Shown: positions 11,593-53,622 of the stretch, in pieces | Layout of the letters: each line of letters opens with the position of its first letter | Position numbering within the stretch: the first letter of the stretch is position 1 | IMG/VR virus record: IMGVR_UViG_3300031673_016563 | Coordinates: 1 to 56,051 of that record | Length of the DNA: 56,051 nt | Direction: 5' to 3' (one strand) | DNA from: a virus | Taxonomy: Duplodnaviria; Caudoviricetes | Position numbers and translations under genes: made by a program | The notes under the pieces: generated by a model | Told to the model about the DNA's origin: nothing | The model's input: the letters and a program-made list of their open reading frames with translations, nothing else | Database searches by the model: none

Positions 11593-11596
11593 TAAA

Positions 11597-11779: not shown

Positions 11780-11781
11780 AA

Positions 11782-12567: not shown

Positions 12568-13236
12568 ATGAGCAATAAAATGACAAATAAAGAAAAGATA
12601 AAAGCACAGTTAGAATTGGATGTTAAACAACAAATAAACGTTCACGATGGCATCACAGGATTACACCTCTTTATATATGGGAATTTCAAAAACGTTAGAG
12701 GTGATGTATTTAAATTATCCGGAGACATAACAGGATTATCCGGAACCGTATCATCAGGATTGTTCGGGGATATAACAGAATTATCCGGCCACATATCAGA
12801 ATTATCCGGTAACATATCAGGATTATCCGGTAACATATCAGGATTATCCGGTAACATATCAGGATTATCCGGAATCATATCAGGATTATCCGGTAACATA
12901 ACAGGACTATCCGGAACCGTATCATCAGGATTGTTCGGAGATATAACAGGATTATTCGGTAACATATCAGAATTATGGGGTAACATATCAGGATTGTTCG
13001 GAGATATAACAGGATTATCCGGAGACGTATCAGGATTATCCGGTAACATAACAGGATTATTCGGAACTGTATCATCAGGATTATCAGGAAACATATCAGA
13101 ATTATCCGGAGACATAACAGGATTATCCGGAACCGTATCATCAGGATTGTTCGGGGATGTTACCTACTTATCCGGGGATATAACAGGCATTGAGGGTAAT
13201 ATAGAGGATATAATAGATATTTTAAGAGAGGAGTAA
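12568..13236 (+). CDS. GDISGL-repeat family protein, copy C (start may be 12580)
   Basis: MTNKEKIKAQL N-cap, GNISGLS / GTVSSGLF repeats, GDITGIEGNIEDIIDILREE C-cap. Confidence 0.8.
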   Translation: MSNKMTNKEKIKAQLELDVKQQINVHDGITGLHLFIYGNFKNVRGDVFKLSGDITGLSGTVSSGLFGDITELSGHISELSGNISGLSGNISGLSGNISGLSGIISGLSGNITGLSGTVSSGLFGDITGLFGNISELWGNISGLFGDITGLSGDVSGLSGNITGLFGTVSSGLSGNISELSGDITGLSGTVSSGLFGDVTYLSGDITGIEGNIEDIIDILREE

Positions 13237-16877: not shown

Positions 16878-18173
16878 ATGATTAATAGGTATACACATAA
16901 AGAAATGGGGGATATCTGGACTGAGGAGAACATGTATAAGACCTGGTTAGAGGTTGAATTGGCGGTATGTAAAGCTTGGGTTGAATTGGGGGAGCTACCA
17001 CAGAAAACATACAATGAAATTTATGATAAAGCTAATTTTGATGCGAATAGAATTGAAGAAATTGAAAAAGACGTGAAACATGACGTTATTGCATTTCTCA
17101 CTAATGTATCTGAGTATGTAGGCCCTGAGAACTCAAGATTTATACATAAAGGGCTGACATCCTCAGATATTTTAGATACTTCTTTAGCTATGAGGATGAA
17201 TCAATCTATAAGTATCATAGTGAGTAAGATCCGAGCTTTAATGGAGGCGGTCAAAAAGAGAGCATATCAATATAAGGATACTATAATTATGGGTCGATCT
17301 CACGGTATGCACGCGGAGCCCACAACTTTTGGATTAAAACTTGCAAGTTGGTATGCCGAGATTGAAAGAAGTTTACAAAGAATATATTCCGTTTGGGAGA
17401 GTATATGTTGTGGTAAGATATCCGGTGCAGTGGGTACATATGCACATATACCAATGGAATTAGAAGTGTTTACATTAGATATTCTAGGTTTAGAGTGTCC
17501 CAAAATATCTAATCAGATCTTACAAAGAGATCGTCATGCTGAATGTATCACCGCATTGGCTATTGTGGGGGCTTCTCTTGAAAAATTTGCAACGGAAATT
17601 AGACATTTGGCACGAACAGAGATTCATGAAGTGGAGGAACCTTTTACAAAAAACCAAAAAGGCTCCTCGGCTATGCCACAAAAGAGGAACCCCATAAGAT
17701 CCGAGAATGTATGTGGATGTGCGAGAGTTCTTCGGGGCTATGCCTTAACCGCGATGGAGAATGTAGCTTTATAGCATGAGAGGGATATCAGCCATTCATC
17801 GGCTGAGAGGATAATAATTCCGGACGCTTTCATTTTGTTGGATCATATGCTTTCCAAGATGATCAATATTGTGGGGAATATGGTGGTATATGAGGATAGG
17901 ATGAAAAAGAATATGGAGTTATCTTCCTCAACCATATTAGCACAAAAAGTTCTATTATTTTTAGTGAATAAGGGGATGGCAAGAGATGTGGCATATAAAA
18001 TAATTCAGAGTACGGCTATGGAGGCTATGCAATCAAATAAAAATTTCATAACTCTACTAAAGGAGAATAAATTAATAAATTCTTGGATAACTGAGGAGGA
18101 TCTGAAACAATTTGATTATTCCAGTTATCTTATTAACGTGGATGAGATATTTAATCGTGTTTTTGGGGAATAA
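16878..18173 (+). pseudogene. purB: adenylosuccinate lyase interrupted by one in-frame TAG (17772-17774); pseudogene or recoded gene
   Basis: HDVIAF, GLTSSD, GRSHG.HAEPTTFG, GSSAMPQKRNP, then MENVAL*HERDISHSSAER continuing in frame to a 431-aa product. Confidence 0.92.
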
Positions 18174-19251: not shown

Positions 19252-20526
19252 ATGAATATAATGGTGATAGGATCAGGGGCTAGAGAACATGCTATGGTTT
19301 GGGCTTTGAAGAAAGATTCTGAAGTAAGTAAAATAATTTGTGTTCCAGGGAATGCAGGTATATCTAAGGTTGCAAAATGTATAAAAGGAGATATTAATAA
19401 TATTTCTGAGTTGTATAATATAGCAAAATATGAGGAAATAGATTTAACTATAATTGGTCCGGAATTACCTTTATCGTTGGGAGTGGTGAACTTCTTTAAT
19501 GAAAGAGGGATGCAAATATTTGGGCCTTGCAAAGAAGTTGCTCAACTAGAGTCCAGCAAATGTTTTTCAAAATCTTTCATGCAGAGGCATAACATACCCA
19601 CTTCGGATTTTAAGCAATTTGAAGATCCGATAGAAGCAAAGAAATATATTAAATTTATTAAAAACACATACGTTGTGAAAGCGGACGGATTAGCCTCTGG
19701 CAAAGGTGTTTTTATATGCCATAATGAATCCGAAGGTATTGATGCTATAAATAAAATAATGATGTATAAAAATTTTGGAGGTGATGCGGGTAAAAAAATC
19801 GTTATAGAAGATTTTTTAAAGGGAAAAGAAGTATCTTTAATGGTAGTTACGGATGGGGTTAATATTAAATTATTGGAGACTTCCGTGGACTATAAAGCAT
19901 TGAGAGTAAATAATATTACGTTGAATACGGGTGGAATGGGTGCGTATAGCCCCTCTGAAATAATGGGTGGGAAGTTATCCGATAATATACTTAGAGATAT
20001 AGTAATACCAACATTAGACAATATATATTTGGAGACGGGGAATAAATATAAAGGTGTATTATATTTGGGGTTAATGATTGATGAGGAAGGTATGCCTTTT
20101 GTTTTAGAATATAATGTTAGATTAGGAGATCCTGAGACGCAAGCATTATTAGTAAGGCTTGAAAGTAGTTTTTTAAAATTATGTTTAGCTACAATAAATG
20201 AAAATTTAAATGAGGTGGATATATTGTGGAAAAATACTCCATCGGTTTGTATAGTTGCTGCATCTAAGGGGTATCCTAATTGCTATGACATAAATAAAGA
20301 GATATTTGGATTGGAGACATTTAATGAATCTTTTAAATCTGTTGAGATATTTCATGGAGGTACGATTTTTGGAGAAGAGGGTAAAATATTAACCGGAGGT
20401 GGAAGAGTACTTTCAATTGTCTCAATAGGAGATTCTATAAATTCTGCCAAACAATTAGCATATGAAGCTATAAGAAGCATATATTTCGATGGTATGTTTT
20501 ATATTGAGAATATAGGAACAATTTAA
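19252..20526 (+). CDS. purD: phosphoribosylamine-glycine ligase (GAR synthetase)
   Basis: IGSGAREHA, PGNAG, GPELPL, LESSK, KADGLASGKGV, NTGGMGAY, EYNVRLGDPETQ, GYP, GGRVL. Confidence 0.96.
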   Translation: MNIMVIGSGAREHAMVWALKKDSEVSKIICVPGNAGISKVAKCIKGDINNISELYNIAKYEEIDLTIIGPELPLSLGVVNFFNERGMQIFGPCKEVAQLESSKCFSKSFMQRHNIPTSDFKQFEDPIEAKKYIKFIKNTYVVKADGLASGKGVFICHNESEGIDAINKIMMYKNFGGDAGKKIVIEDFLKGKEVSLMVVTDGVNIKLLETSVDYKALRVNNITLNTGGMGAYSPSEIMGGKLSDNILRDIVIPTLDNIYLETGNKYKGVLYLGLMIDEEGMPFVLEYNVRLGDPETQALLVRLESSFLKLCLATINENLNEVDILWKNTPSVCIVAASKGYPNCYDINKEIFGLETFNESFKSVEIFHGGTIFGEEGKILTGGGRVLSIVSIGDSINSAKQLAYEAIRSIYFDGMFYIENIGTI

Positions 20527-20902: not shown

Positions 20903-22294
20903 ATGATCCCAGAAAAAGTCAAATATGACTTAAACAAATTAGTGTTCTCTAATCCTGATTTGATATATATCTTAGATGAGTTTATGAAGGGTTGCCATAA
21001 TATATATCTTGTTGGAGGGTGTGTGAGAGATACCTTGATAGGTATGGGATGTAAAGATATTGATTTAGTAACGGATGCTTCTCCGGAGGAAATTAAGGAG
21101 ATGTTCCCTGAGGCCAAATGTCACGGTCAATTTTTGATCACTGTGGTAAGAGGTGTTGAGATTGCTACATATAGGGAGGATGTATTTAACACGGGTAAGG
21201 CTACGGAATGTAAAGTTCGGAGAGTTCAAACGATTGAGGAGGATTTAGCAAGAAGAGATTTTACTTGCAATGCTATGGCATTTGATCCTATAGGTCAAAA
21301 CATAGTTGATTTGTACGGTGGATATACATCTTGTCTTTTTAGAGAGTTATCCTTTGTGGGGAAACCTGATAGGAGAATTCAGGAATCTAATGCGAGGATT
21401 TTGAGAGCTTGTAGATTTGTTGCCGTATTAAATGGGAGCTTTGATATAGACACTTTAGAGGCCTTAAAGAGGAATGCTCATTTAGTGAACAATATTTCCA
21501 AAGAAAAGATCATGTTGGAAATAAAAAAGGCTATGAGTATCAAAAGAGCTTCAATGTTCTTCAAGGCTCTACATGCTATTGGAGCTTTACAATATATCTT
21601 TCCTTCCTTAGAGGATTGTGTGAATCAAGATGGCGGCCCGCATCATGCCGAAACGGTATTTGATCATTGTATGGAGGTGGGAGATGCTATTACCACAAAA
21701 AATTGGAGATTGAAGTTGGCCGGGTATTTGCATGATATTGGTAAGCCTCCTTGTGCTGAGATTGCAGCGGAAACAAATGCTTTGAGATTTAGGAATCATC
21801 CCGTAACGGGGGCAAAACTAGCAACCAAGGAGTTAAAGGATCTGAAGTTCAGCAATGAGGATGAGGCTTATATCTCTAATCTGGTGTTACTGCATATGAC
21901 CTCCTTGAAAGAGGATTTCACCAAAAAAGCAGTAAAGAAATTTATAAGGAAATTGAAAGAGAAGAATATTAATTATAAAGATTGGTTCAAATTGCGGATA
22001 GCGGATAGAAAGGGGAATCGAAAGAGCTTCAATTATACCTTCAGAGAGATTTACGATAGAGTGGGATTGATCCATGATATACTCAAGGAGAAAAATGTAT
22101 TCTCATTAAAGGATTTGGCGGTTAACGGTCAAGATGTTATGAATATTCTTCATATTTTACCAGGGCCTTTGGTGGGGGCGGTATTGAAAGCATTATTTGA
22201 GGATTGCTTCAATAATCCTGAGCGTAATAACAAAGAATTTTTGTTGTATCGAATGAGTAACCTATCTGAGTTGATGTGCGATGATTTAAATTAA
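20903..22294 (+). CDS. cca: class II tRNA nucleotidyltransferase (CCA-adding/poly(A) polymerase family) with HD domain
   Basis: YLVGGCVRD..G..KDID, EIATYR, EDLARRDFTCNAMA, RILRA, LHDIGKP, DLAVNGQD. Confidence 0.9.
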   Translation: MIPEKVKYDLNKLVFSNPDLIYILDEFMKGCHNIYLVGGCVRDTLIGMGCKDIDLVTDASPEEIKEMFPEAKCHGQFLITVVRGVEIATYREDVFNTGKATECKVRRVQTIEEDLARRDFTCNAMAFDPIGQNIVDLYGGYTSCLFRELSFVGKPDRRIQESNARILRACRFVAVLNGSFDIDTLEALKRNAHLVNNISKEKIMLEIKKAMSIKRASMFFKALHAIGALQYIFPSLEDCVNQDGGPHHAETVFDHCMEVGDAITTKNWRLKLAGYLHDIGKPPCAEIAAETNALRFRNHPVTGAKLATKELKDLKFSNEDEAYISNLVLLHMTSLKEDFTKKAVKKFIRKLKEKNINYKDWFKLRIADRKGNRKSFNYTFREIYDRVGLIHDILKEKNVFSLKDLAVNGQDVMNILHILPGPLVGAVLKALFEDCFNNPERNNKEFLLYRMSNLSELMCDDLN

Positions 22295-23176: not shown

Positions 23177-24082
23177 ATGGGAGATCCTAAAAGATCTATT
23201 TCTCGGTTCGATAGCAAAGGAGCTGTCACAAGTAATGCAGTAACTATTAAATCTATTCCTAAGATGGGGAAGAAAGATGAATCTTTTGATGCTTTACTTG
23301 CGGAACAATCTAAAGCAGCCTCATTAAAGACTGATAAATTATTAAAGAAAGTTAAATCAAAACCTACTCCAAAACCTACTCCAAAACCTACTCCAAAACC
23401 TACTCCAAAACCTACTCCAAAACCTGAGGGGGAAATCATTGAATCAATGGATGATATAGATCTATCTTTCTTAGGTTTGGATTCCTCATCGGAAAAAGAA
23501 TATGATATGGAATCCGCTATTCTCAAGGAGGAGGTGGATAATATAGTAAAAAATCCATCTAAACTTGAGTCTTCTGATGAGAACGTAATTTCAGAGGCCA
23601 TTAAACCTTCGGAGCCATATGTGAAACAATATTATTATAATGAACCTAATCAAGAGAATTTCGAGTTAAAGGTTGCACCACTCAAAGATATTTGTATAAC
23701 TCTACCTTCAGGGGGTAGGCGAAATGCAAATGTTCAGATCTTTCATTTATTTAAGGAATCATCATTATGGAGGGAGGTTCTAAATCAAATTAAGAAATCC
23801 GGAGGCGAAGTACGTTGGATATATAAAGATTCTTTGTTAAGTAAGATTTTTATTCATGCCTTAGAGGATATATATGCTTGTGATAATTCGGCTTATATGG
23901 AATGTCTTCCATATTTACATGTTATAAAGAAAAATAAAAAATATGTGATAGTCTTGGCCTCAATTATTTTTCTTTATTTAGGTATACCTTGTTATGTAGT
24001 ATGTGAGGTATCTGATTTCAATCGGGGAAACATAGAGGATATATTTTTGGTAGGGGTGGATATAATAGAGGCCATAGAATAA
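23177..24082 (+). CDS. hypothetical protein with KPTP repeat linker
   Basis: 12-bp AAACCTACTCCA x5 near 23360-23420. Confidence 0.7.
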   Translation: MGDPKRSISRFDSKGAVTSNAVTIKSIPKMGKKDESFDALLAEQSKAASLKTDKLLKKVKSKPTPKPTPKPTPKPTPKPTPKPEGEIIESMDDIDLSFLGLDSSSEKEYDMESAILKEEVDNIVKNPSKLESSDENVISEAIKPSEPYVKQYYYNEPNQENFELKVAPLKDICITLPSGGRRNANVQIFHLFKESSLWREVLNQIKKSGGEVRWIYKDSLLSKIFIHALEDIYACDNSAYMECLPYLHVIKKNKKYVIVLASIIFLYLGIPCYVVCEVSDFNRGNIEDIFLVGVDIIEAIE

Positions 24083-24100
24083 TTAAGGATACGAGGAGTT

Positions 24101-24334
24101 ATGAAGATTATATTTGGTAAAAAGGCGAATTATCCAACTTTTCATTTATTGAAATTGGATTTGGAGCCTAAAGGTTTAAGGAAAAACTTTGATTATTTGT
24201 ATTATGATTTGCAGACAAAAGAAGGATATGAAGAATTTAAATCTAGGGGTTTTACTGATTTAGAGTACCAAGATTTTTTAGTTAATATAAAAGATTTTGA
24301 ATCAAAATTACCAATAATTTTAGAGGAGTATTAA
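24101..24334 (+). CDS. hypothetical protein
   Basis: GAGGAG SD. Confidence 0.6.
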   Translation: MKIIFGKKANYPTFHLLKLDLEPKGLRKNFDYLYYDLQTKEGYEEFKSRGFTDLEYQDFLVNIKDFESKLPIILEEY

Positions 24335-24336
24335 TC

Positions 24337-24696
24337 ATGACAAATAGAGAAAAAATATTTACGCAATTGAGATTCAGTTTAAGATTACAAAAAAATGTCC
24401 ACGATAGTATTATAGGATTACACCCTAATATTTACGGTGATTTCCAAGACATTAGGGGGACCATATCATCAGAATTATCGGGAGATATAACAGAATTATC
24501 AGGAGATATAACAGGTATTAAGGGGATTATATGTCCAGAATTATCTGGAACCATATCATCGGAATTATCAGGAGATATAACAGAATTATATGGTGATGTA
24601 TCAGGATTATATGGAAACATATCAGGATTATCAGGAGATATAACAGGTATTGAGGGTAACATAGAAGACATAATAAAAATTTTAAAGGAGGATTAA
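24337..24696 (+). CDS. GDISGL-repeat family protein, copy D
   Basis: MTNREKI..QL..NVHD.IIGLHPNIYGDF N-cap, repeats, GDITGIEGNIEDIIKILKED C-cap; 25-bp flanking direct repeats. Confidence 0.8.
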   Translation: MTNREKIFTQLRFSLRLQKNVHDSIIGLHPNIYGDFQDIRGTISSELSGDITELSGDITGIKGIICPELSGTISSELSGDITELYGDVSGLYGNISGLSGDITGIEGNIEDIIKILKED

Positions 24697-24698
24697 TC

Positions 24699-25124
24699 AT
24701 GATGGATAATTTTAAAAAAAGTGTAATGTTAACACCGGATGCTATATTTGATAATCTTATGGGGAATATGAGTTTAGATGATATGCAGAGGGTATTTAGA
24801 GATTATGATAAATTATCAAATATCTCAACAAAAGAAATATTTGATAACGGAGGCAAGTATTCTGTTGTAGACATCCCGAATTCATTATTTGAATTTATGA
24901 TGAACAAGCTTTTAATTTCAGAGGGGCAGATAAAGTTGGCCTCTCATATGCATGTATTCAATAAAACTATGGAGGTGGTATTGTGTCTTCCTATTAGCCA
25001 ATATAACAAGAATATCTATGAGTATCGGATTATATTGTCAAATAATAAAGCAAGGTTGCTAAATCAAATAAATCAAATAGCGGATGAGCTGAAATTATTG
25101 TCGGATATAGAGTTGGGAGAATAA
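24699..25124 (+). CDS. hypothetical protein
   Basis: AGGAGG SD. Confidence 0.65.
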   Translation: MMDNFKKSVMLTPDAIFDNLMGNMSLDDMQRVFRDYDKLSNISTKEIFDNGGKYSVVDIPNSLFEFMMNKLLISEGQIKLASHMHVFNKTMEVVLCLPISQYNKNIYEYRIILSNNKARLLNQINQIADELKLLSDIELGE

Positions 25125-25128
25125 TTAA

Positions 25129-25995
25129 ATGATAAATTTGAGTAGTATAAATAAAAGTTTGATAACCTCAAAGAATGATTTTAATTCATGGGCCGAGGAA
25201 ATCTTGGAATTAAGTAAAGTTCAAGGAGGATCTACTCTAGGGTTTGATCTTGAGACTAATGGTAAGATTTTTCCGGATACTGAGTTGGTGGGATTTTCCT
25301 TATATAATAGAACTCTATCTAAAGCTTGTTATGTGCCCATACATCATATAGAGACAACTATATCATATAATGTTTTTTTAAGTGATATAAAATCCAGCCT
25401 CCAATTATTATTTGATACTTCCTTAATTACGGTGCATAATGGGGTATATGATTTCTTGTTAATGAATAAATTAGGGTACAAGTTCAATAAGGTATTCTGT
25501 ACCTATACATTAGCGAATATGCTCCAGTTCATTAATCTGGGTTTGAAGGAGCTTTCTTTGGAGTTTGGGTTGATCAAGTATAATGAGGTTATGACATATC
25601 TAAAATTAATGGGTCTATTGGGATTTCCGGAAGATCATTATGATTTCTCGGATATTGATATCACTTCAAGTAAAGAAGCATTTGATTACGCGGTCAATGA
25701 TTCAATATTTGTGGTTCATTTGGCGGAGATTTTGTTCAACAAATATTATGAGTTGATTGGCAATGGAAATTTAGTACGATTCAATCTAGACTCCCAGTTC
25801 AATACCATGCTGCTATTAGCTGAAACATCTACTTCAAAAGGATATTATGTAGATAAGAATTATCTGGATGTTTTCATAAAGCAATTTGGCACGGAACTTG
25901 AATCAAAAGAGAAAGAGCTCATGGACAAAGTTAGAACTTTTATGGGGTGGGCAGTTTCGGAGGATAACATGAAATCAATCTCAGCGGGGGTATGA
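25129..25995 (+). CDS. polA: family A DNA polymerase, fragment 1 (3'-5' exonuclease and start of thumb)
   Basis: ExoI GFDLETNG, ACYVPIHH, ExoII HNGVYD, LGLKEL, ExoIII YAVND, G..VD..YL. Confidence 0.85.
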   Translation: MINLSSINKSLITSKNDFNSWAEEILELSKVQGGSTLGFDLETNGKIFPDTELVGFSLYNRTLSKACYVPIHHIETTISYNVFLSDIKSSLQLLFDTSLITVHNGVYDFLLMNKLGYKFNKVFCTYTLANMLQFINLGLKELSLEFGLIKYNEVMTYLKLMGLLGFPEDHYDFSDIDITSSKEAFDYAVNDSIFVVHLAEILFNKYYELIGNGNLVRFNLDSQFNTMLLLAETSTSKGYYVDKNYLDVFIKQFGTELESKEKELMDKVRTFMGWAVSEDNMKSISAGV

Positions 25996-26525
25996 TTATG
26001 GCCAAGAAAACTTTAGCTGATTTGAAGGATGCATTTAAGGAGGAGCCTCTAAAGAATGTTAAGATAGATGAGGTTAAGAAGAAAGTACCTAAATGGAACA
26101 TGGATTCAAGGAATTTAATGATCAACTTATTCTTCAATGTTCTGAAGGAGAAACATAGAACGGCTGCGGATAAGTTGCCGAGTATAAATGCTGATGCTTT
26201 GGATAAAATGAGAAATCCAATAGCTCAAGAGGTCATTAAATTTCGTTCGGATACAAACTTATTAAATAGCTTTAAGAATGTGGGTTCCTATGTCCATTCT
26301 AATAGAAAATATGGGTATTCGGATGAATGGGATAGAGCTAATATAAAATATAATATGGTGGGGTTTGACAATGTTGAGCGAATTTATCCAGTGGCTAAAG
26401 AGAGTATTCCTCTAAGTGCTAATAAGAAGGTTAGGAAGGCTTTTGTAATTCCAAGAAGCCATTTGATTTTTGAGGATCATCTAAAGGATGATATACGAAA
26501 AATTTTAGACAATTTGAAGGAGTAG
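25992..26525 (+). CDS. polA: family A DNA polymerase, fragment 2 (thumb region)
   Basis: WNMDS..L..LFF (cf. FNxxSxxQL), PSINADAL, NPIAQEVIKFR, VRKAFV. Confidence 0.7.
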   Translation: MIMAKKTLADLKDAFKEEPLKNVKIDEVKKKVPKWNMDSRNLMINLFFNVLKEKHRTAADKLPSINADALDKMRNPIAQEVIKFRSDTNLLNSFKNVGSYVHSNRKYGYSDEWDRANIKYNMVGFDNVERIYPVAKESIPLSANKKVRKAFVIPRSHLIFEDHLKDDIRKILDNLKE

Positions 26526-26529
26526 TATT

Positions 26530-26721
26530 ATGGATAAGAAATGTAGATTTTGTGGGGAAAAGGCTAATGTTTCAGGGTTATGTGATGATTGTCATGATTG
26601 CATTAGACATTTAGAAGAGATTATAAATGTTAACCCTAGAGAGGCTATCAAATATTTAGAGGTGAAACTAGCCTATGCTAAGAGAATGCGAGCTAATAGA
26701 TATATGTCAAAGGAGGTGTAA
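26530..26721 (+). CDS. small Zn-finger-like protein between polymerase fragments
   Basis: CRFCG....GLCDDC; AAGGAG SD. Confidence 0.6.
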   Translation: MDKKCRFCGEKANVSGLCDDCHDCIRHLEEIINVNPREAIKYLEVKLAYAKRMRANRYMSKEV

Positions 26722-26724
26722 ATT

Positions 26725-27549
26725 ATGGGGGAGGATAGAAAAACATATCCTACTAAGATTTGGCTTTCTTTTGATTGGAAGCAAGCTGAAATGTATTTCT
26801 TATGTTTATTTAGTAAGGATAGTGTATTGAAACAGGCCTTATATTCTCAGGATTTTCATAGCTATGTTGCAAGTTTGCTGGATAACATTTCTATTGAGGA
26901 TGTAAATCCAACTAATCGGGAGATAGCTAAGGCGATAAGTTTTAATTTGATATATTCGGGATTTAATGCCAAGATCACTATGGCAAATATCCTGAAGAAG
27001 AGACCTGATTTGAATGAGGATCAGGTCTCAGATATGCTAGATAAATATCAGAGCACCTTCTTCTGTTTGTTTAATTGGGTTAAGAAATCGGTTCTGGATT
27101 GGAGGGATAATGCGGGGTATATGACATATTTCATGGGGGCTAAAAAATTTATACCTATCCCAAAATATGTCACTGCGGATTGTGATCCTGATAAATTATT
27201 ATACACTAAGCAAGGCCGTTTGTGTATAAATACTTTTGGTCAAAATTCTGTGGGGCTTCTATTAAAGTCGGTATGCTCAAAAATTTTTAGTAATGCTTTA
27301 TTAAGGGAAAAGACAACTCAATATATTCCTTTGTTTGACTCCCTTAGTTTTTTGGCTGATACTGAAAACTTAGATTATATTCTGAGAGCTGTGGATGAGT
27401 ATGCTACTCCAATTATAACACATGATGGTTTTGAGATTAGTATGAAGGTGGATTGGTCCATATCGGATAAATCCTGGGGGGATCTAAAGAAATTTGAGTA
27501 TGTCAACGAGTGTAAAAATAAATTATATTATCAATGGGATATCGTATGA
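26725..27549 (+). CDS. polA: family A DNA polymerase, fragment 3 (palm and fingers)
   Basis: motif A SFDWKQAEM, DFHSYVA, motif B REIAKAISFNLIY, INTFGQ, motif C PLFDSL. Confidence 0.85.
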   Translation: MGEDRKTYPTKIWLSFDWKQAEMYFLCLFSKDSVLKQALYSQDFHSYVASLLDNISIEDVNPTNREIAKAISFNLIYSGFNAKITMANILKKRPDLNEDQVSDMLDKYQSTFFCLFNWVKKSVLDWRDNAGYMTYFMGAKKFIPIPKYVTADCDPDKLLYTKQGRLCINTFGQNSVGLLLKSVCSKIFSNALLREKTTQYIPLFDSLSFLADTENLDYILRAVDEYATPIITHDGFEISMKVDWSISDKSWGDLKKFEYVNECKNKLYYQWDIV

Positions 27550-27812
27550 ATAGATTATTGAATTTTAAGCAAAAAGAGGATAAGAGGTACACTCCTTCTG
27601 AGAATAGTCAGGGGGATAAGATTGTTAAAGTAAAGAATTTGCTTAAAGGGTTAGGGGTTGAGTATAGAATATGCAATCCTAATCATATTAAAGTTGGAAG
27701 AGTAAATTATTATGTATCTACAGGTACCTGCTATATCGATGGGGAATTGAAATCATTGTCAGGTAGGGGATTGGATGTTTTTAAACGAGCTTTAAATCAG
27801 TATAAAGATTAA
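27546..27812 (+). CDS. hypothetical protein
   Basis: ATGA overlap with upstream stop; VNYYVSTGT motif. Confidence 0.6.
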   Translation: MNRLLNFKQKEDKRYTPSENSQGDKIVKVKNLLKGLGVEYRICNPNHIKVGRVNYYVSTGTCYIDGELKSLSGRGLDVFKRALNQYKD

Positions 27813-27822
27813 AAAAGGAGAA

Positions 27823-28164
27823 TTGATGTTCGAAAATATCAATGTTATGGACGCTAAAGAATTTCGGGAGAAAGGGTATCTCCAAGAATTGAATAGGAGA
27901 TTTCTACACCCCTTAGGTTTAGCTCTAGAGATAAGTATTGAGGAGGATGGCACGGAGTCATTAGGAAGAATTTGGGATTATCGAGGAGATCCTGAAGGAA
28001 TTTCCTATGATATAGCCAATCCCCAATATTCTAACGAGGAGCAGGTTGAAAAATTTCAGAAGAGTTTTGATTTTATTGAGGGGGAGATTAAATTTCGTAA
28101 GATGAAAAGAATAGATGGGGTAGGATTTTGGGTGGAACCTATTCCGGGGAGGATCAAATCATGA
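27823..28164 (+). CDS. hypothetical protein, tandem paralogue 1
   Basis: GYLQELNRRFLHPLGLAL...WDYRGDPEG. Confidence 0.75.
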   Translation: MMFENINVMDAKEFREKGYLQELNRRFLHPLGLALEISIEEDGTESLGRIWDYRGDPEGISYDIANPQYSNEEQVEKFQKSFDFIEGEIKFRKMKRIDGVGFWVEPIPGRIKS

Positions 28165-28505
28165 GTAATAGTGTGTATAGTACTTTAGATTTTAACCGCA
28201 TAAAACCTTTAGATTTTTGTAAACGAGGGTATTTACAAGAAGCCAATAGAAGATTCTTTCATCCTTTAGGGTTATCTCTAGTTGTCATTACAAATGAGGA
28301 TGGGTCAGAGGGGGTATTTGATATAGTTGATAGAAGAGAAGATCCTAATGGTTGCGTCTTTGATTTTAAAGATGAGTCTCATTTTGATTCGGATAGGATA
28401 GAAGAGATTAAACATAAGGCTAAAATTTTTGAGGATGAGTGGGACGCTCGTTTAAAGAGTAGATTAGAGAATTTAGGCTTCACCAACGAACCTTTACCCG
28501 AATAA
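28161..28505 (+). CDS. hypothetical protein, tandem paralogue 2
   Basis: GYLQEANRRFFHPLGLSL...VDRREDPNG; ATGA overlap with GGAGG SD. Confidence 0.75.
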   Translation: MSNSVYSTLDFNRIKPLDFCKRGYLQEANRRFFHPLGLSLVVITNEDGSEGVFDIVDRREDPNGCVFDFKDESHFDSDRIEEIKHKAKIFEDEWDARLKSRLENLGFTNEPLPE

Positions 28506-28524
28506 TTAAGGATAGGACAATATT

Positions 28525-29220
28525 ATGATATTAAATTTTAATTGTTATATTGTGTTAGGGGTGGAGAATAATGCAAGTAAGAAGGATATCAAAAAGGCCT
28601 ATCGAGCTATGAGTAAAAAATATCATCCTGATAATTCCGATACGGGGGATATAGATAAATTCAAAAATATCAGTGTGGCTTACTCGATACTCAGTGACGA
28701 TAAGAAAAGAACTCTATATGATCTGGGTAAATGGTCCGAATTGGATGCTGAGAGTGAGATCGAATTGACGGAGGCGGAGCAGAATATAGTGGCCCTATTT
28801 TCAGAGGGTTTAGAGAAGATATATTATGATTTTGAGTATGATGAGGAGGATAATCCAGAACAGAATGCTTATGCATTCAAGTTGATCCAAAGAATTAAGG
28901 AGCAGGTGAATAAGGAAGTTATAGATTACGAGAGATCCATATATGATTTAGAGGAGTCCGTCAAATTAATCAAGAGCCTAAAACCATACATAAAGTATAA
29001 GAAGGATAATAGTAAATATAATTTGGTGGGTATGGCTATGGATCAGACAGTATCTAATAAGGAGCATGAAATAGAGGATATAAAAGATCAAATCAATTTG
29101 GCGGAGAATATGCTAAAGCTATTAGAAGATTTTGAAGTTTGTGATCCGAAATCCGACCTGTTAGGGCTTATAGATTGGGTACATGATAAAATGAAATCAA
29201 ATACCCCTTCGGAGAAATAA
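28525..29220 (+). CDS. J-domain (DnaJ-like) protein
   Basis: Y.VLGV..NAS..DIKKAYR..SKKYHPD...F..I..AY.ILSD..KR..YD. Confidence 0.9.
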
Positions 29221-29223
29221 ATT

Positions 29224-29454
29224 ATGAATGGTAAAAATTATTTGTACCTAACTAATACGTTTTTTGAGGGGGATACACGAAGTCAAATTGATAATGTTTA
29301 TAGAGATCGAGAGGAGAAGCCTGAGAAAGTAGTAGAGTATAAGAGAGCTTTAAGATGCGGGGATTGTAGAATTGTATTTAAAGCTCTAACGAAGTATCAA
29401 ATCAATAAGATTGTTGAATTAGGGGTTATTGAATTAATAAATTATTTAGATTAG
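29224..29454 (+). CDS. hypothetical protein
   Basis: GGAG SD. Confidence 0.55.
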   Translation: MNGKNYLYLTNTFFEGDTRSQIDNVYRDREEKPEKVVEYKRALRCGDCRIVFKALTKYQINKIVELGVIELINYLD

Positions 29455-29467
29455 AGAGGATAGAATT

Positions 29468-30343
29468 ATGATAATTATCCATCATTATGACCTTGACGGG
29501 CAATGTGCTGCGGCAATAGTAAAATATAAGTACCCGGATGCCAAAACATATGAGATGACTTATGGGGATGAGATTCCCTGGGGAATTATAAAGAATAATG
29601 ACGTTTGTATAGTGGATTTCTCATTTGAATTGGAAGATATGAAAAGAGCGTTAGCGGAATCTCAATCCCTATATTGGATTGACCACCATATTGGGGCTAT
29701 AGACAAACTCAAAAGTATTGAGAATGATATATTAGGCATTAGAGACAAGGAAGAAAAATTTGCGGGGTGCGAATTAGCTTGGAAATATATCTTCCCTCAT
29801 GATCCGATGCCAAGGGTAGTCAGTTTATTAGGGAGATATGACACTCACGATTATATAGATGATACAATTTTACCTTTTCAATATGCAATGAGGACAAAGG
29901 ATACAGATCCCAGTGGTAATTTTGAATTTTGGGTGGATCTATTTACAGATATTGATGGAGATAGTGAGTTTGATTTTTTAAATGAGGAATCCTTAATTGA
30001 TTCAATCATCGAGGAGGGCGGGCCAATTGAGAAGTTTGTAGAGGGTAGAAATGCTAACTTTGTGCGAGATAATGCTGTATGTGTTAATTTGGAGGGATAT
30101 AAATTTTTAGCAGTCAACACATATTTAGACAATTCTAATGCGTTGGAGAAATTCTTTGATCCGAATAAATGGGATGCTATGATGGTATTTTATAGGAAAT
30201 CAGGTGGGTGGAGTGTGTCTTTGTATAACGGAGATGAGGATGCTGGAAAAGTTGATTGTGCTAAAATAGCTCAGAAATTTGGTGGGGGAGGCCATTTTTC
30301 AGCAAGCAATTTCTTCTGTGAGCGATTACCCTTTGAGGTATAG
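29468..30343 (+). CDS. DHH/DHHA1 family phosphoesterase
   Basis: H.DLDG, IVDFS, WIDHH, FGGGGH. Confidence 0.9.
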   Translation: MIIIHHYDLDGQCAAAIVKYKYPDAKTYEMTYGDEIPWGIIKNNDVCIVDFSFELEDMKRALAESQSLYWIDHHIGAIDKLKSIENDILGIRDKEEKFAGCELAWKYIFPHDPMPRVVSLLGRYDTHDYIDDTILPFQYAMRTKDTDPSGNFEFWVDLFTDIDGDSEFDFLNEESLIDSIIEEGGPIEKFVEGRNANFVRDNAVCVNLEGYKFLAVNTYLDNSNALEKFFDPNKWDAMMVFYRKSGGWSVSLYNGDEDAGKVDCAKIAQKFGGGGHFSASNFFCERLPFEV

Positions 30344-30484: not shown

Positions 30485-31480
30485 ATGTTAATACACACTC
30501 ATAGTATGCTATCAAGTATTTTTCATAAATTATTACATAAGGATCATTTTGAGGGCACGTTGAAAAAACTGAACCCAACGTGCCTGGAGGGTATAGCCGG
30601 TATAGGTAAGATATACTATATTAAAGAATTCATACGAGATTGTTTGTGCTCTGAGTATAATCCTTTTCTAAACACGAGAGAGGATTATACTCAAGATTGT
30701 TCCTGTAAGGTGTGTAATTCCATATCTAATAATACTTTGGTGGATATGTTTGTTTTAGACAATAAGGAGGATATTGAAGCCATTAGAGGATATTTAGAGG
30801 TATTTGTTTATTCTTACCCGAAGGAATACAATTATAAATTTTTGATTGTGCCAGATTTGCATTTAATTTCTAATAGAAAAACGGATATTTTGTTAAAGAT
30901 ATTTGAGGAGTCCCCTAAATATTTGAAAATATTTGCAACGTGTTTGAATGCAAATAAGGCCCCTCAAACTTTAATGTCGAGGCTGAATATTATACATTGT
31001 AATCCCTTATCTAAGGATAATTTGAGATTCATCCTATCACTATCATCTACTACAGAAAATCAATTATCTAATCTGGATAAATATAATTTCAAAAGTCTAG
31101 ATCAAGTTATGGTATATAGTAAATATAGATTTGAGGATAAATTCAAATCTATATTTGTAGAGAGGGCTAATGCCTATACGATAACAAAAGAGGTAAAATA
31201 TTTGTTGGATATTTTAGATTCCGAGGATCAACTGGGAGAGGCATTGTTATTCTTCATGGAATATTATTTAGATAAGATATATGAATTCTGCGATCTTAAC
31301 AAGGATACTATCAAGGTACAATACTTTAAGCAGCATATTCAAGAAAAGGTGATACCTAAATTTGCTAAATGCTTCTTTGGGTATCTTGATTCTCCGAAGC
31401 AATATCGTATATCTAAGTCCAATCAATTATTCTTATTTCTAAATCTGATAAATATTGCACGATTAACTATTGAGGGGTAA
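30485..31480 (+). CDS. holB: clamp-loader delta-prime-like subunit
   Basis: GIAGIGK, C.CKVC Zn cluster, LLKIFEESP, TLMSR. Confidence 0.7.
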   Translation: MLIHTHSMLSSIFHKLLHKDHFEGTLKKLNPTCLEGIAGIGKIYYIKEFIRDCLCSEYNPFLNTREDYTQDCSCKVCNSISNNTLVDMFVLDNKEDIEAIRGYLEVFVYSYPKEYNYKFLIVPDLHLISNRKTDILLKIFEESPKYLKIFATCLNANKAPQTLMSRLNIIHCNPLSKDNLRFILSLSSTTENQLSNLDKYNFKSLDQVMVYSKYRFEDKFKSIFVERANAYTITKEVKYLLDILDSEDQLGEALLFFMEYYLDKIYEFCDLNKDTIKVQYFKQHIQEKVIPKFAKCFFGYLDSPKQYRISKSNQLFLFLNLINIARLTIEG

Positions 31481-31483
31481 AGG

Positions 31484-32494
31484 ATGATAGATTTGGAATT
31501 CATAATGTCTAATCGCAATTCATTCAAGAGATGTATAATTTACTCTTACATCTCTTCAGCGTTCAAATTTGAGGTTACGGAGAAAATAAAATCTGTTTTT
31601 GATTTCCGAGGAATTCTACTCAATGAGGCGGATTACTCTTCCTTTCTGGATTCTTGTAATGGATTATCATTATTTGGGGAGTCGCTAATCTTGATAGATT
31701 TAGAGAAATTTAAGGGAGTATCTAAATCCTGGGTGGCGGAGTTTGATAAATTTTGTCTGGATTTTGTGGCGGAGAGATTAGAGAACAGATTTGTGGTATT
31801 TGGGTTGCAGGATTCATTCGATGGGTTGAATAATTCTAAGAATTTTATTGAGTTTAAAGATAAATCCTCTCTGATTGAGGAGGCTCCTCCTGAAAAATTA
31901 TCTGCTTCTATATTTTTAGATTATATTAGTTTTAGAAATAAAAATGCATTTGATTTGACAAAGGTAAAAAATTCTGATACAATGTATAAGTCTATCGGTC
32001 AAATATTAAAGTCTAAGGAGTTGGATATATTTGAGATCATATCCTTATGTGAGGAGTGCCTATTTGTGGCTTTGAATAATGATAAATTTGATGCTGTTTT
32101 GTCTAATCTTTTGATAAATAATGTATCTAAGCAAGATAATTTCATTCTATATGATCTAGTATTTAATGTTCTAGCTACGGGGTCCAAGATATCAAAGGAT
32201 AGATTATATAAGTATCTCTTAGAACTTAATACGATTGAGGAATTTAGTGTCGAATTAATATCGTATCGGTTTATGAAGGTATACAAGGATTTTCTATATA
32301 TTAATGTTGAATATGGCCCTTCGGAGGATTACTTAAATACTCTGAACGTTTATTATAGGAAGTATTTAGGGAAATTCAAGGATATAAAGTTACATAAATT
32401 ATTTCGAGTAGGCATGTTACTTGCAATATATGAATCATTGTTAAATTCAAATAATTTCACAACATTATTATATGAGTTCGTAGCAATGCTGTGA
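31484..32494 (+). CDS. clamp-loader delta-like subunit (divergent)
   Basis: SLFG..LILID motif, size 336 aa, position between holB-like gene and dnaX. Confidence 0.5.
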   Translation: MIDLEFIMSNRNSFKRCIIYSYISSAFKFEVTEKIKSVFDFRGILLNEADYSSFLDSCNGLSLFGESLILIDLEKFKGVSKSWVAEFDKFCLDFVAERLENRFVVFGLQDSFDGLNNSKNFIEFKDKSSLIEEAPPEKLSASIFLDYISFRNKNAFDLTKVKNSDTMYKSIGQILKSKELDIFEIISLCEECLFVALNNDKFDAVLSNLLINNVSKQDNFILYDLVFNVLATGSKISKDRLYKYLLELNTIEEFSVELISYRFMKVYKDFLYINVEYGPSEDYLNTLNVYYRKYLGKFKDIKLHKLFRVGMLLAIYESLLNSNNFTTLLYEFVAML

Positions 32495-32510
32495 TCAGAT
32501 AGGGGTTATT

Positions 32511-33833
32511 ATGAGTGAGTCTTTAGTTCAAAAATACCGTCCTATCCGTTTTGAAGATATTTTGGGGCAAGATATAAATAACCGATTGTTATCCAATTTC
32601 ATTAAGTTGGGATATATAGGAAAGAATATTATATTACATGGCCCTTTTGGAGCATCTAAGACCTCCTCAGCCAGGATATATGCTAGGGCTTTAAATTGCT
32701 TAAAGGCCACGAATTCAGGGTCTCCTTGTAACGAATGTGAACATTGTGTTCAATTTTTCAACAACTCTTATTCGGATTTCATTGAAGTGGATGGAGCTAC
32801 GCAAGGTAAAAAAGATAAAATACAAGATTTGATTGAGATTATAAGTTCGCCTCCTATCTTGGGGAGATATAGAGTCATTATTATTGATGAGTGTCAAAAT
32901 CTATCTCGATCAGCATGGGATACTCTACTAAAGATAACGGAGGAGCCACCCTCTTATTTAGTATTCATTTTTACCACTACGGAATATAACAAAGTACCTA
33001 AAACTATACAATCACGATGTCATTCCAGACAGGTTTCTTTACTACAGGATGAGTTAGCTAAGAATCATCTAGTAGATATTTGCACCAAAGAAAATATACC
33101 TTATGAGAATGCGGCTTTGGAGATTATAATTTCAATCTCCAAAGGGCACGCTAGAGATCTATTAAAGAATTTAGAGCAATGTTTTTTGTTTGGAGGTGTG
33201 ACTGAGGAAAATGCTTTACAATTATTTAATCTTGGGTATATACAGCATATTGAGGGTATTGTATTCCAATTATTAAGTGGTGGAGATATATCCCCTATAT
33301 TTTTAATTCTGGATAATTGGGGGGAAGATGCTACTAGGGTTTTGGGTATTTTGAATTCCTTTGTAATTTACATTTATATGCTAAAATGTAGGAATATCAA
33401 ATTGAATATAGATCCTATATTTCATTCTATACCTTCTAAGGATATCGAGATAATTTTTGGGGTGGCCAAAGAATTATCTAACTCTTTGAGGGTAGATGTG
33501 GATACTTTGTTTGATAAGATACTTGAACTTTTTAAGGGGGTCAATGTAAGATCAAATTTAGAACTATATTCTTTCATTATAGGGTTTTTTAATAGTATTC
33601 ATAGAATATCATTAAAAGTATTCGAGGATAGTTCTTCCATTGGGGCAGGTAGTATGGTTGGTAGCAAGATTGGCGCATCAAATGTTAAGGGTAGGAAATT
33701 CATTGAGGGGTTTGAGGATAAAAATAAAACAACTTCAAGTACTCAAACCAGTTCTAAGTTATATACCCATTCACTTACTGCACATAATTTCAAATTTAAA
33801 GATAAAGAACATATGAAGATAGGGAGGGTTTAA
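32511..33833 (+). CDS. dnaX: clamp-loader gamma/tau ATPase subunit
   Basis: KYRP..FEDILGQ, GPFGASKTS, ALNC..PCNECEHC, IIIDE, LLKITEEPP, TIQSRC, GHARD. Confidence 0.92.
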   Translation: MSESLVQKYRPIRFEDILGQDINNRLLSNFIKLGYIGKNIILHGPFGASKTSSARIYARALNCLKATNSGSPCNECEHCVQFFNNSYSDFIEVDGATQGKKDKIQDLIEIISSPPILGRYRVIIIDECQNLSRSAWDTLLKITEEPPSYLVFIFTTTEYNKVPKTIQSRCHSRQVSLLQDELAKNHLVDICTKENIPYENAALEIIISISKGHARDLLKNLEQCFLFGGVTEENALQLFNLGYIQHIEGIVFQLLSGGDISPIFLILDNWGEDATRVLGILNSFVIYIYMLKCRNIKLNIDPIFHSIPSKDIEIIFGVAKELSNSLRVDVDTLFDKILELFKGVNVRSNLELYSFIIGFFNSIHRISLKVFEDSSSIGAGSMVGSKIGASNVKGRKFIEGFEDKNKTTSSTQTSSKLYTHSLTAHNFKFKDKEHMKIGRV

Positions 33834-33834
33834 T

Positions 33835-35310
33835 ATGGCTATTGAGAGAGATAAGACATATATTTTGATTTACGTATCTATATCTTTTAGGAACAATGTC
33901 TCATTTCTAAAGAAGATTAAGAAGGTTTTTAATTTTGATATCCCTTATCTGGAGGTCTCCAATTTGTCTGAAGAGCTCAAAAATGTACTTGATTCCTACA
34001 TATATCTAGAGAAGTCTAAATATGATTCTAAGATATTTGCTCAGCTATATGAGAAATATAAGCAAATGAGTTTTACGGAGTTGGGGGAGATATCCGGGAA
34101 TGAAATTCAAAATCTCATTGATAGCTGTATAAAAGATATTCAAGACTCTATAGTTATCGGGGAGTATTATAAGATATGTAAACTCCATCCTCTCAAAAAT
34201 TTAGTTGTTCAAGCAGTCAGTCGAGATGAGGAAAATATGATTGGTGAGTATGAGGTTATGGGGGGGAATAAGAGAATTAAGTTGCCTATATCCAAGGTGA
34301 CCCCATTTGAAAACAAGTTTTTATTAGAGAAAGAAGCTCAATTTACGAGTTATATTGATATATATAGGGAGAGAGATATGAAAAATGCTATCGTGATAGA
34401 TGGAGATAATACATTGTGGAGAAATATGTTTGGGTTTGGTAATCTATATACTGCTAAAGATCATACTTTTGTGGGTGGTGCTTATGGGATGTATTTTTCT
34501 TTATTGAAATTGAAGGAGTTATATCCTGAGTACGAAATTCATCTAGTGTTTGACGGATACGATAAAGTTAAATTTGAAGCTAATCCAGACTATAAGAAAA
34601 ATAGAGTTCAGAAAACGGATCAAGTCAAACAAGATTTCAAAAATAATAGAAGATGGACTAAAGCTATGGCAAGCTCCTTAGGGTTTAATGCGTATCATAT
34701 CCTGGATTCCGAAGGGGATGATGTCGTGGGCTCCGTGGCCCACTTTTTAGAGCATGATTTAGAGTACAATCATATCTTTATTCAATCAGTGGATACGGAT
34801 TTTTATTCCTTAGTGTCGGATGTAGTCAACTTGTACGTACCTCGTGTAGAATTTCGAGGCATATCCAATAAGATAACAATGAGGGAAGCCTTGGATAAGT
34901 TTGAAATAAATGAGATACGTAAGATTAATTGGGTGCGATCTCTTAAGGGTGATAAAAGCGATAATATATATTCTGTGAATCTGTATAATTTAGATAATGG
35001 GATAAAGTGTTCTCGCGTAAAGAAGCAACATTATTTGGATATCATAAATGATTTGGATAATTTCAATGATGTCAAAATAAGATTGATGCAAAATAAAAGA
35101 TTCAAGAGCTTTGTGGAGAGTGGTCAGATGGATAAGAATTATAACCTACTCACTATAAATACCAATATATTCAAAGGCAAGACTAATCTAGATGATTATT
35201 CCAATATCTGTAATCAAGAGAGAGCTATTGAATTATTGGAGGAGTTCTCATTTTATAAGGAGTTAGAATTATTTGATAGAAGCTATAGGATATTTAGAGG
35301 GGGGTGGTGA
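33835..35310 (+). CDS. 5'-3' exonuclease (FEN/PolI N-terminal type) with possible NusG-like N-terminal region
   Basis: IVIDG, LVFDG, YKKNR, EGDDV, SVDTDF, LKGDKSDNI; first 181 aa resemble an NGN+KOW layout. Confidence 0.8.
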   Translation: MAIERDKTYILIYVSISFRNNVSFLKKIKKVFNFDIPYLEVSNLSEELKNVLDSYIYLEKSKYDSKIFAQLYEKYKQMSFTELGEISGNEIQNLIDSCIKDIQDSIVIGEYYKICKLHPLKNLVVQAVSRDEENMIGEYEVMGGNKRIKLPISKVTPFENKFLLEKEAQFTSYIDIYRERDMKNAIVIDGDNTLWRNMFGFGNLYTAKDHTFVGGAYGMYFSLLKLKELYPEYEIHLVFDGYDKVKFEANPDYKKNRVQKTDQVKQDFKNNRRWTKAMASSLGFNAYHILDSEGDDVVGSVAHFLEHDLEYNHIFIQSVDTDFYSLVSDVVNLYVPRVEFRGISNKITMREALDKFEINEIRKINWVRSLKGDKSDNIYSVNLYNLDNGIKCSRVKKQHYLDIINDLDNFNDVKIRLMQNKRFKSFVESGQMDKNYNLLTINTNIFKGKTNLDDYSNICNQERAIELLEEFSFYKELELFDRSYRIFRGGW

Positions 35311-52932: not shown

Positions 52933-52935
52933 AGA

Positions 52936-53619: not shown

Positions 53620-53622
53620 AAT

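Follow-up and report, generated by a model that had tools for sequence, protein, structure and literature searches.

Organization of the polymerase locus

The IMG/VR virus record IMGVR_UViG_3300031673_016563 is a stretch of 56,051 bp (the whole of which we call the window) with a G+C content of ∼34%, in which essentially all long open reading frames (ORFs) lie on the + strand; its completeness is ∼24% according to CheckV, and the phage is a large soil phage. We describe here a locus of this record at which the segments of a family A DNA polymerase (PolA) are distributed over three separate ORFs, referred to as pieces 1, 2 and 3, with a small zinc-ribbon ORF lodged between the last two. The ORFs of the locus are the following (aa, amino acids).

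25129..25995, + strand: piece 1, 288 aa; 3′-5′ exonuclease and start of the polymerase domain
25992..26525, + strand: piece 2, 177 aa; thumb and the R-x-A-F strand that precedes motif A
26530..26721, + strand: zinc-ribbon ORF, 63 aa; occupies the entire gap between pieces 2 and 3
26725..27549, + strand: piece 3, 274 aa; palm and fingers with motifs A, B, 6 and C
27534..27812, + strand: ORF of no known family, 92 aa; directly 3′ of the palm gene

Pieces 1 and 2 are read in different frames, and the stop codon TGA of the former overlaps the start codon ATG of the latter (ATGA). The zinc-ribbon ORF is flanked by gaps of 4 and 3 nucleotides (nt) and shares the frame of piece 3, from which it is separated only by TAA ATT. 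Profile alignments to PDB entries place each piece in order, so that the three are collinear with the Klenow fragment and every segment of PolA is present. The initial annotation of this DNA, which had proposed three collinear family A polymerase pieces on separate ORFs, agrees with the coordinates and with the Pfam and Klenow alignments.

Assignment of the three pieces to segments of PolA

Piece 1 matches the Pfam family DNA_pol_A_exo1 above the cut-off (E 1.2e-6) and, together with piece 3, falls into the PHROGs DNA polymerase family phrog_17 (E 3.9e-14 for piece 1). The profile of its family aligns to residues 8–120 and 152–248 of the Klenow-fragment chain, which means that the protein consists of the exonuclease domain plus ∼50–60 residues from the start of the polymerase domain. 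The exonuclease motifs Exo I, II and III (DxE, D and YxxxD) are present, and D40, E42, D108, Y187 and D191 are invariant over 20 rows. An exhaustive search of 1.84 billion representatives gave 51 matches at E ≤ 1e-3. Among the 23 with E ≤ 1e-10, 22 are stand-alone proteins of 174–349 aa in which the alignment reaches the protein end; the first unsplit form among the matches is P0061, of 624 aa (E 1.9e-11). The relatives all terminate 0–31 residues beyond a conserved M-G-W, and piece 1 of the window ends 14 residues beyond it. We also observed that 12 of 20 relatives, though not piece 1 of the window itself, end in an S-L-F-like peptide, which we take to resemble the sliding-clamp-binding motif of bacteria.

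The assignment of piece 2 relies on several lines of weaker similarity. It matches positions 5–92 of Pfam DNA_pol_A below the cut-off (E 0.0037, 16.7 bits), its family profile weakly matches the thumb segment of Pol I in PDB (E 0.0031), and the N-terminal half of a fused relative, P0021, can be aligned with it at 40% identity. Thirteen homologues were found, 12 of which are stand-alone proteins of 151–188 aa with 37–59% identity (a further row is a near-identical strain variant, at 97%). They share the start M-A-K-K and the same end point, and 32 columns are invariant across 12 rows. Where other PolAs have the T-G-R element (TGRLSS), ahead of the R-R-x-F strand, this family carries an invariant G-[FY]-D-N-[VI]-E-R.

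Piece 3 is the most clearly recognizable of the three by Pfam, with a match to positions 152–380 of DNA_pol_A (E 2.3e-19; 70.1 bits against a cut-off of 34.3). Its family profile aligns to residues 376–585 of the Klenow chain with motifs A, B, 6 and C in register, and the protein begins 16 residues before the aspartate of motif A. A search that took in proteins of up to 480 aa gave 24 homologues, 23 of them with 263–346 aa and 40–63% identity (an additional row, at 99%, is the protein of the window itself), and all start within a few residues of one point. In motif A, which reads D-W-x-Q-A-E, the equivalents of Klenow D705 and E710 (D17 and E22) are both invariant, in 24 rows of one alignment and in 21 rows of another. 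R65, K69 and Y77 of motif B (R-x3-K-x7-Y) are invariant and aligned with motif B of Klenow, and the same invariance holds for R165, N169 and Q173 of motif 6. Motif C is F-D-[S/A] in all rows, with F204 and D205 invariant, compared with H-D-E in Klenow. The unusual motifs reported by the initial annotation (DWKQAEM, FDSL and the lack of TGRLSS) are thus real, the variants being invariant across the family. Moreover, the unsplit P0061, a distant cousin, carries G-F-D-G-T-A-R and H-D-S; the deviations are therefore older than the split and are a feature of a wider divergent subfamily, not a sign of decay. Among 24 relatives of piece 3, eight have N-P-F as their last residues, the protein at L021 (7995–8966) having two such motifs, and this ending is not found in piece 3 of the window.

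Relatives of the locus were sought in three sets of sequences. Viral-contig scans with pieces 1 and 3 and with two alignments gave no close relative, and one of them returned 10 distant PolA loci at 24–32% identity. The metagenome scan gave nine loci, that is four relatives (L012 to L015) and five distant ones, and the genome scan a single locus, L021, in a metagenome-assembled genome (MAG).

Authenticity and conservation of the split

Contig L012 is 96.7% identical in nucleotide sequence to positions 24185–27771 of the window, with 110 mismatches. Its indels are all upstream, at or before 24561, and 24562–27771 is free of them. Piece 1 differs by 34 nt, piece 2 by 5, the zinc-ribbon ORF by 0 and piece 3 by 11 (50 in total), and all four ORFs are intact, with zero indels and zero internal stops. 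In addition, contigs of four further runs have no letters inserted or deleted over 25000–27700, and two of these bridge the interval unbroken, with 25 and 52 substitutions and 0 gaps. Indel errors that would restore a single ORF, which had been named as the finding that would overturn the split, are thus absent from L012 and from the four runs, where only substitutions occur. The arrangement is not an assembly artefact. For pieces 1 and 3, the ratios of non-synonymous to synonymous substitution (dN/dS) against L012 are 0.09 and 0.05, respectively; the pieces are under purifying selection. A stronger sign of constraint is that every piece possesses a protein family of its own.

Position of the two breaks and reshuffling of the modules

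The first break lies between M-G-W of piece 1 and W-N-x-x-S-R-x-L of piece 2. Since the equivalents of these elements are only a few residues apart in the unsplit P0061, it is an insertion of ∼45 residues that holds the cut. The second break separates the R-x-A-F-[VI]-P strand from the strand of motif A. Both breaks are situated in family-specific insertions between conserved elements of PolA and are kept in deeply diverged relatives. The pieces had been described as carrying short non-homologous tails at the breaks, which is incorrect for piece 2: its head and tail are kept in the family, and the tail, of 23 residues, aligns with the linker of P0021.

P0021 (475 aa) consists of pieces 2 and 3 in one frame, without the zinc-ribbon module. 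Its AlphaFold2 (AF2) model has a predicted local distance difference test score (pLDDT) of 66.9 and a predicted template modelling score (pTM) of 0.62, and it matches the large fragments of Bst and Taq Pol I over ∼410 columns (E ∼4e-13, template modelling score ∼0.5). An unrooted tree of the palm proteins contains two clades with 99/99 support; P0021 branches off first in one of them, and this clade also holds proteins whose upstream neighbour is other than piece 2 (L015 and L021). From this position and from the neighbours of its clade-mates, break 2 would have originated repeatedly or been reverted once, the tree being unrooted. A second rearrangement was found on L014, where the palm protein P0016 continues in frame into a copy of the 75 C-terminal residues of piece 1 (tblastn E 6.5e-9; profile E 3.6e-17, positions 214–281), and its stop is followed by homologues of the window ORFs 27534–27812 and 29224–29454. 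The end module of piece 1 is hence found on either neighbouring chain, as expected if the chains meet in one folded enzyme.

Six longest-contig sizes (12207, 3951, 5788, 32133, 4557 and 1803) are common to the homologue lists of pieces 2 and 3, which suggests that these pieces co-occur on the same contigs. At L021, the 8 kb that precede the palm gene contain neither piece 1 nor piece 2. A search of the MAG that contains L021, which is fragmented, gave no match to piece 2, and the sole match to piece 1 belongs to a frame of 963 aa that is presumably the Pol I of the host.

Expression signals

Each downstream ORF of the locus has its own ribosome-binding site: GGGGG 7 nt before the ATG at 25998, AAGGAG 7 nt before the ATG at 26530 and AAGGAGGTG before the ATG at 26725. 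Because the GGGGG run resembles a Shine-Dalgarno sequence and the relatives begin with M-A-K-K, the true start of piece 2 is probably the second ATG, at 25998, giving a protein of 175 aa. No terminator-like site was found within 24000–29500. Given the head-to-tail packing, the separate Shine-Dalgarno sequences and the lack of a terminator between them, the four cistrons are probably co-transcribed and translationally coupled. Promoter-like sites are not more numerous than in shuffled sequences (37 versus 27.4 ± 7.1). We also searched for elements that could rejoin the pieces. No Rfam intron family was found in 24000–29000 at E ≤ 1, and the Pfam scan of the pieces gave no intein family. The tails that do not belong to PolA are 23 and 12 aa long; the halves of split inteins measure ∼100 aa (N-intein) and ∼35 aa (C-intein).

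The zinc-ribbon ORF and the ORF downstream of the palm gene

The 63-aa ORF has the pattern CxxC-x9-CxxCxxC followed by a basic helical tail. Its Pfam matches are limited to weak zinc-ribbon ones (E 0.01), and neither Pfam, PHROGs nor the ESM Atlas assigns it to a family, the Atlas matches being limited to small proteins without a name and to structural neighbours below the threshold; none of the three reveals an endonuclease domain. It is very likely a real gene, since it fills the gap exactly, has a good ribosome-binding site, and an open frame of 63 codons would occur there by chance with P = 0.0036 at the local base composition. Its sequence is identical in L012, which leaves its dN/dS undefined, and its sole detected homologue is 95% identical, with three conservative changes and all Cys retained.

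Directly upstream of the palm gene, other relatives have a 160-aa ORF (L015), a 311-aa ORF (L021) or the end of an unrelated ORF (L014). The view that a zinc-finger mini-gene had been inserted at this site is in line with these unrelated ORFs and with a homologue found only at 95% identity. This distribution makes it probable that the zinc-ribbon gene is an insertion specific to its lineage, in a permissive junction that takes up different genes in different lineages; the protein may be an accessory subunit, a regulator or the remnant of a selfish element. A complex prediction for the four chains, with the zinc-ribbon protein as partner, gave a score of 0.00 and, being made without controls, is evidence neither way.

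On the other side of the palm gene, an ORF of ∼92–105 aa always follows, even at 39–49% identity (L014 1157–1450, L021 9117–9434, L013 840–1025). The corresponding ORF of the window, 27534–27812, matches no Pfam or PHROG family. It may be a polymerase accessory protein, its candidate membership in the polymerase unit being deduced solely from synteny.

Genome context and other genes in pieces

Further genes of the window relevant to replication, and the other genes that occur in pieces, are listed below with a group of metabolic genes that are unusual in phages.

33835..35310, + strand: 5′-3′ exonuclease, FEN-like, 491 aa (Pfam 5_3_exonuc_N, E 2.3e-18); the third activity of Pol I, on its own gene
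30485..33833, + strand: clamp-loader genes; delta′-like ORF (30485–31480), unassigned ORF of 336 aa, DnaX-like ORF (32511–33833)
8120–8752, 10515–11318 and 11991–12515: NAD-ligase in three ORFs, with unrelated ORFs between
16878–17774 and 17835–18173: PurB (adenylosuccinate lyase) in two ORFs
2292–3821: CTP synthase
15184–16284: PurM
19252–20526: PurD
20903–22294: CCA-adding/poly(A) polymerase-type protein with HD domain

The clamp-loader genes were assigned from matches to Pfam DNA_pol3_delta2 (E 7e-13 and 3e-32) and to the PHROG clamp loader. No Pfam match to DnaE, PolB, the beta-clamp or PurZ was obtained in the 56 kb of this ∼24% complete record, so that the clamp-loader set stands there without a detected sliding clamp or Pol III alpha. 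The search for a second replicase, which had been proposed as a check, thus gave no match to DnaE or PolB in the 56 kb, and the rest of the phage genome lies outside the record. The PolA described here could replicate the phage genome or fill gaps in the manner of Pol I; a clamp loader and a separate 5′-3′ exonuclease fit both. A role as modified-base polymerase, which had also been suggested, receives no support, a PurZ-type gene being absent from the ∼24% of the genome that the record covers. The record also encodes a DnaJ-domain protein, a DHH phosphoesterase, a sigma-like protein, terminase, portal and capsid. Its large terminase subunit (TerL) is closest, at 27–30% identity, to those of a 485-kb uncultured phage and of the 309-kb Tunturiibacter phage Tunturi_5. 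We rejected the TerL relatives Tunturi_5 and LR745208 as members of the clade, because exonuclease and polymerase are unsplit in both, in large frames of 1423 and 1763 aa.

The three ligase pieces correspond to adenylation-domain positions 10–146, to adenylation-domain positions 170–252 plus the OB domain, and to the BRCT domain. An ORF of 71 aa (11779–11994; Zn_ribbon_8, E 1e-10) directly precedes the BRCT piece, paralleling the zinc-ribbon ORF of the polymerase locus. The two halves of PurB share a frame across one TAG (17772–17774), and reading through it gives a clear PurB-like sequence; this codon is either a fresh nonsense mutation or a site of amber suppression. TAG ends 14 of 71 long ORFs of the record, and TAA 46 of 71. 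The proposal that fragmentation is a trait of the whole lineage is strengthened by these genes in pieces, NAD-ligase and PurB, and by the recurrence of both polymerase breaks in relatives down to ∼25–40% identity. That it would serve to evade sensors of intact replication proteins, as had been suggested, is a conjecture on which the data bear neither way.

Two other groups of ORFs were observed. Three consecutive ORFs of the same frame (52093–54984), separated by TAG, one codon and ATG, carry repeats of a CxxC zinc-ribbon unit similar to the repeats with which a 764-aa ORF (46055–48349) begins; these are tandem paralogues or else a single protein translated across TAG. In addition, Ser/Gly/Asp-rich ORFs built of short repeats, with 70–80% mutual nucleotide similarity (9857–10513, ∼11379–11593, 12568–13236 and 24337–24696), adjoin the ligase pieces and sit just upstream of the polymerase. 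They may represent a dispersed repeat-protein family or a mobile cassette.

Comparison with known split polymerases

Splitting of PolA is already known from a few phages, both between exonuclease and polymerase and, with a small ORF, before motif A; the locus described here takes it further. In S-SBP1-like phages of the T7-like group, the split between exonuclease and polymerase is presented, in the accessible part of the report, as the first observed in PolAs (Czernecki et al. 2023, PMC10201439). As in our locus, the S-SBP1/S-TIP37-like cyanophages have the proofreading part on its own gene, with overlapping or abutting ORFs and subunits that are presumed to associate non-covalently (PMC10201439 and PMC12695635, accessible parts). 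In the same passages, the S-SBP1 type is a single recent fission at the exonuclease/polymerase boundary within a T7-like subfamily, whereas the break described here lies ∼60 residues into the polymerase domain (Klenow ∼248), is old (22 of 23 representatives) and is accompanied by a second break inside the palm. The best phage matches of our polymerase pieces are not T7-like. According to the available text of the same survey, only one of 19 PolA clusters changes the T of T-G-R, from T to A (PMC10201439); because the whole T-G-R is replaced in the clade of the window, it may lie outside those 19 clusters as far as they are described there.

The closest architecture is that of the phages MEP401 and MEP402 of OM43 (Methylophilales), for which the part of the publication available describes an exonuclease with N-terminal PolA, a small unknown ORF and a C-terminal PolA (PMC10580990). 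In the MEP401 record OP830906, gp13 reaches position 132 of DNA_pol_A (plus 13 residues) and gp15 starts at position 154, piece 3 of the window starting at 152. The break is thus, as here, between the R-x-A-F strand and motif A, with an ORF of 63–77 aa and of no known family in the gap. MEP401 differs in having two pieces, the exonuclease and thumb being still fused, and in being a 43-kb podophage; its interposed ORF is of 77 aa, free of Cys and unrelated to the zinc-ribbon ORF. MEP401 is not among the tblastn matches listed for piece 3, and the likeness is one of architecture only. That an unrelated phage is broken at the same place, again with a small ORF, points to a hot spot of recurrent insertion immediately before motif A.

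Genes in pieces also occur in T4-related phages, where they reportedly result from insertions of free-standing homing endonucleases. The likeness is that an essential gene of DNA metabolism is split by an ORF at a highly conserved site and keeps its function; the difference is that the 63-aa ORF has no endonuclease domain, and a mobile origin would here be a deduction. The Twort polA gene was considered as an intron precedent at the motif A site and rejected, as it is one ORF. Among large phages with a replicative polymerase in separate polypeptides, the split family B polymerase of PhiKZ is reported, in the accessible section of that work, to form a stable complex of DNAP-N and DNAP-C (PMC13648687), and a split minimal Pol III alpha is described for jumbo phages in the available part of another (PMC7824862). 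These polymerases, as described there, belong to families B and C and their breaks are not homologous to ours. A zinc module also accompanies the PolA of HMO-2011-type phages, in which an in-frame partial DnaJ zinc-binding domain lies between the exonuclease and polymerase domains (PMC9038755, accessible part). That module is likewise Cys-rich, but by the same account it is in frame, at another position and conserved across the group, whereas ours is a separate gene seen in one species-level lineage only. No three-piece PolA was found in the literature searched.

A probable three-subunit polymerase and its alternatives

Taken together, the alignments, the conserved motifs and the conserved chain ends make it probable that the locus encodes a three-subunit PolA assembled without covalent links. 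It would make a proofreading family A DNA polymerase as three polypeptides, which would come together again in one enzyme; indirect support for this reassembly comes from the relatives, because they join the same modules differently (pieces 2 and 3 fused, or the end of piece 1 behind piece 3). Several points weigh against it. Physical assembly and activity of the pieces are predictions from sequence. Altered or reduced catalysis would be possible, with motif C lacking H and E and T-G-R replaced. The dN/dS of piece 2 against L012 is 0.95, a value that comes from only five differences. The AF2 model of piece 2 alone has a pLDDT of 42.7, too poor for a fold search; such a low value would fit a fragment that does not fold autonomously, and a shallow alignment would give the same. 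The count of stand-alone palm proteins covers forms of up to 480 aa. Finally, a minor −1 slip on GGGGG before the stop of piece 1 may fuse pieces 1 and 2, as the frame of piece 2 is open from 25968.

This last point leads to the reading that the pieces are rejoined during expression, pieces 1 and 2 by −1 frameshifting, or the parts on either side of the zinc-ribbon ORF by an intron, an intein or stop read-through, the product being one or two larger proteins. The ATGA overlap and the five-G run inside the eight codons in which the piece-2 frame is open upstream would allow the former, and the common frame of the zinc-ribbon ORF and piece 3 across TAA ATT the latter; the continuation of PurB homology across a single in-frame TAG makes some stop suppression conceivable in this phage. 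However, the downstream pieces are each equipped with a Shine-Dalgarno sequence and an ATG, these starts are conserved in the relatives of pieces 2 (M-A-K-K) and 3, and the tails of piece 1 vary in length after M-G-W. Moreover, on L014 the end module of piece 1 terminates and is followed by another gene and not by piece 2, no Rfam intron was found, the tails are too short for split inteins, and the stop concerned, TAA, is the commonest ordinary stop of the record. We consider rejoining improbable. It is highly improbable that the locus is a decaying gene, frameshifted, interrupted by an ORF and non-functional. Loss of H and E from motif C, disappearance of TGRLSS, the in-frame stop in PurB and the near-neutral ratio of piece 2 could be read in this way, but the same breaks and motif variants are invariant in families spanning 23–63% identity, pieces 1 and 3 have dN/dS values of 0.05–0.09, L012 and the contigs of four other runs contain neither indels nor stops, and the G-F-D and H-D-S of the unsplit P0061 make the variants older than the split.

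Two further readings concern the number of partners. The zinc-ribbon protein might be an integral fourth subunit that clamps the junction of pieces 2 and 3 or adds DNA binding, a possible but rather unlikely role. Its gene, which stands between the two pieces, is probably coupled to them in translation and has a strong ribosome-binding site. Its sequence does not vary in L012, where the flanking genes do, its 95% identical homologue keeps all Cys, a second small zinc-ribbon ORF precedes the BRCT piece of the split ligase, and the module within the HMO-2011-type PolA provides, as far as that source goes, a precedent (PMC9038755). Against this, no homologue was found beyond 95% identity, compared with many for pieces 2 and 3; other lineages have unrelated ORFs at the junction, as does MEP401 with its Cys-free 77-aa ORF, and P0021 is fused without any such module. 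Alternatively, the pieces could work independently: piece 1 would be a free exonuclease for proofreading or repair, and pieces 2 and 3 would form a polymerase of their own, possibly one specialized for repair or modified nucleotides. Such a division of labour would agree with the complete exonuclease site of piece 1, with the S-L-F-like ending of its own in 12 of 20 relatives and with the L021 palm gene that has neither piece 1 nor piece 2 in the 8 kb upstream. We regard it as distinctly unlikely: piece 1 always carries ∼60 residues of the polymerase domain, which would have no role in a free exonuclease, this module is joined to the palm protein on L014, no base-modification genes were seen in the record, and PolAs, in the accessible part of their structural description, need the exonuclease domain for stability (PMC10201439).

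Implications for family A polymerases

Beyond the three-subunit enzyme itself, a broader proposal can be made, which we hold to be doubtful as a whole. The locus might represent an undescribed PolA subfamily of large environmental phages that is modular and consists of three, sometimes two, subunits rejoined in varied orders. The chain ends created by the splits would serve as docking peptides for the replisome (S-L-F, N-P-F), of which the record encodes a clamp loader, and fragmentation would be adaptive and part of a genome-wide habit of keeping genes in pieces.

With respect to the split PolAs described previously, what is new is the presence of two breaks in one PolA, one of them at a position not reported in the literature consulted, their conservation in a sizeable uncultured clade, the permutations of the modules and the divergent active site. 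Family A polymerases are textbook single-chain enzymes, whereas this clade keeps the polymerase domain in two chains and the exonuclease on a third. The altered H-D-E and T-G-R of the clade are of interest for catalysis. The natural split sites and permutations can be used to test how far the PolA fold needs covalent continuity, and the split sites could guide the engineering of split polymerases.

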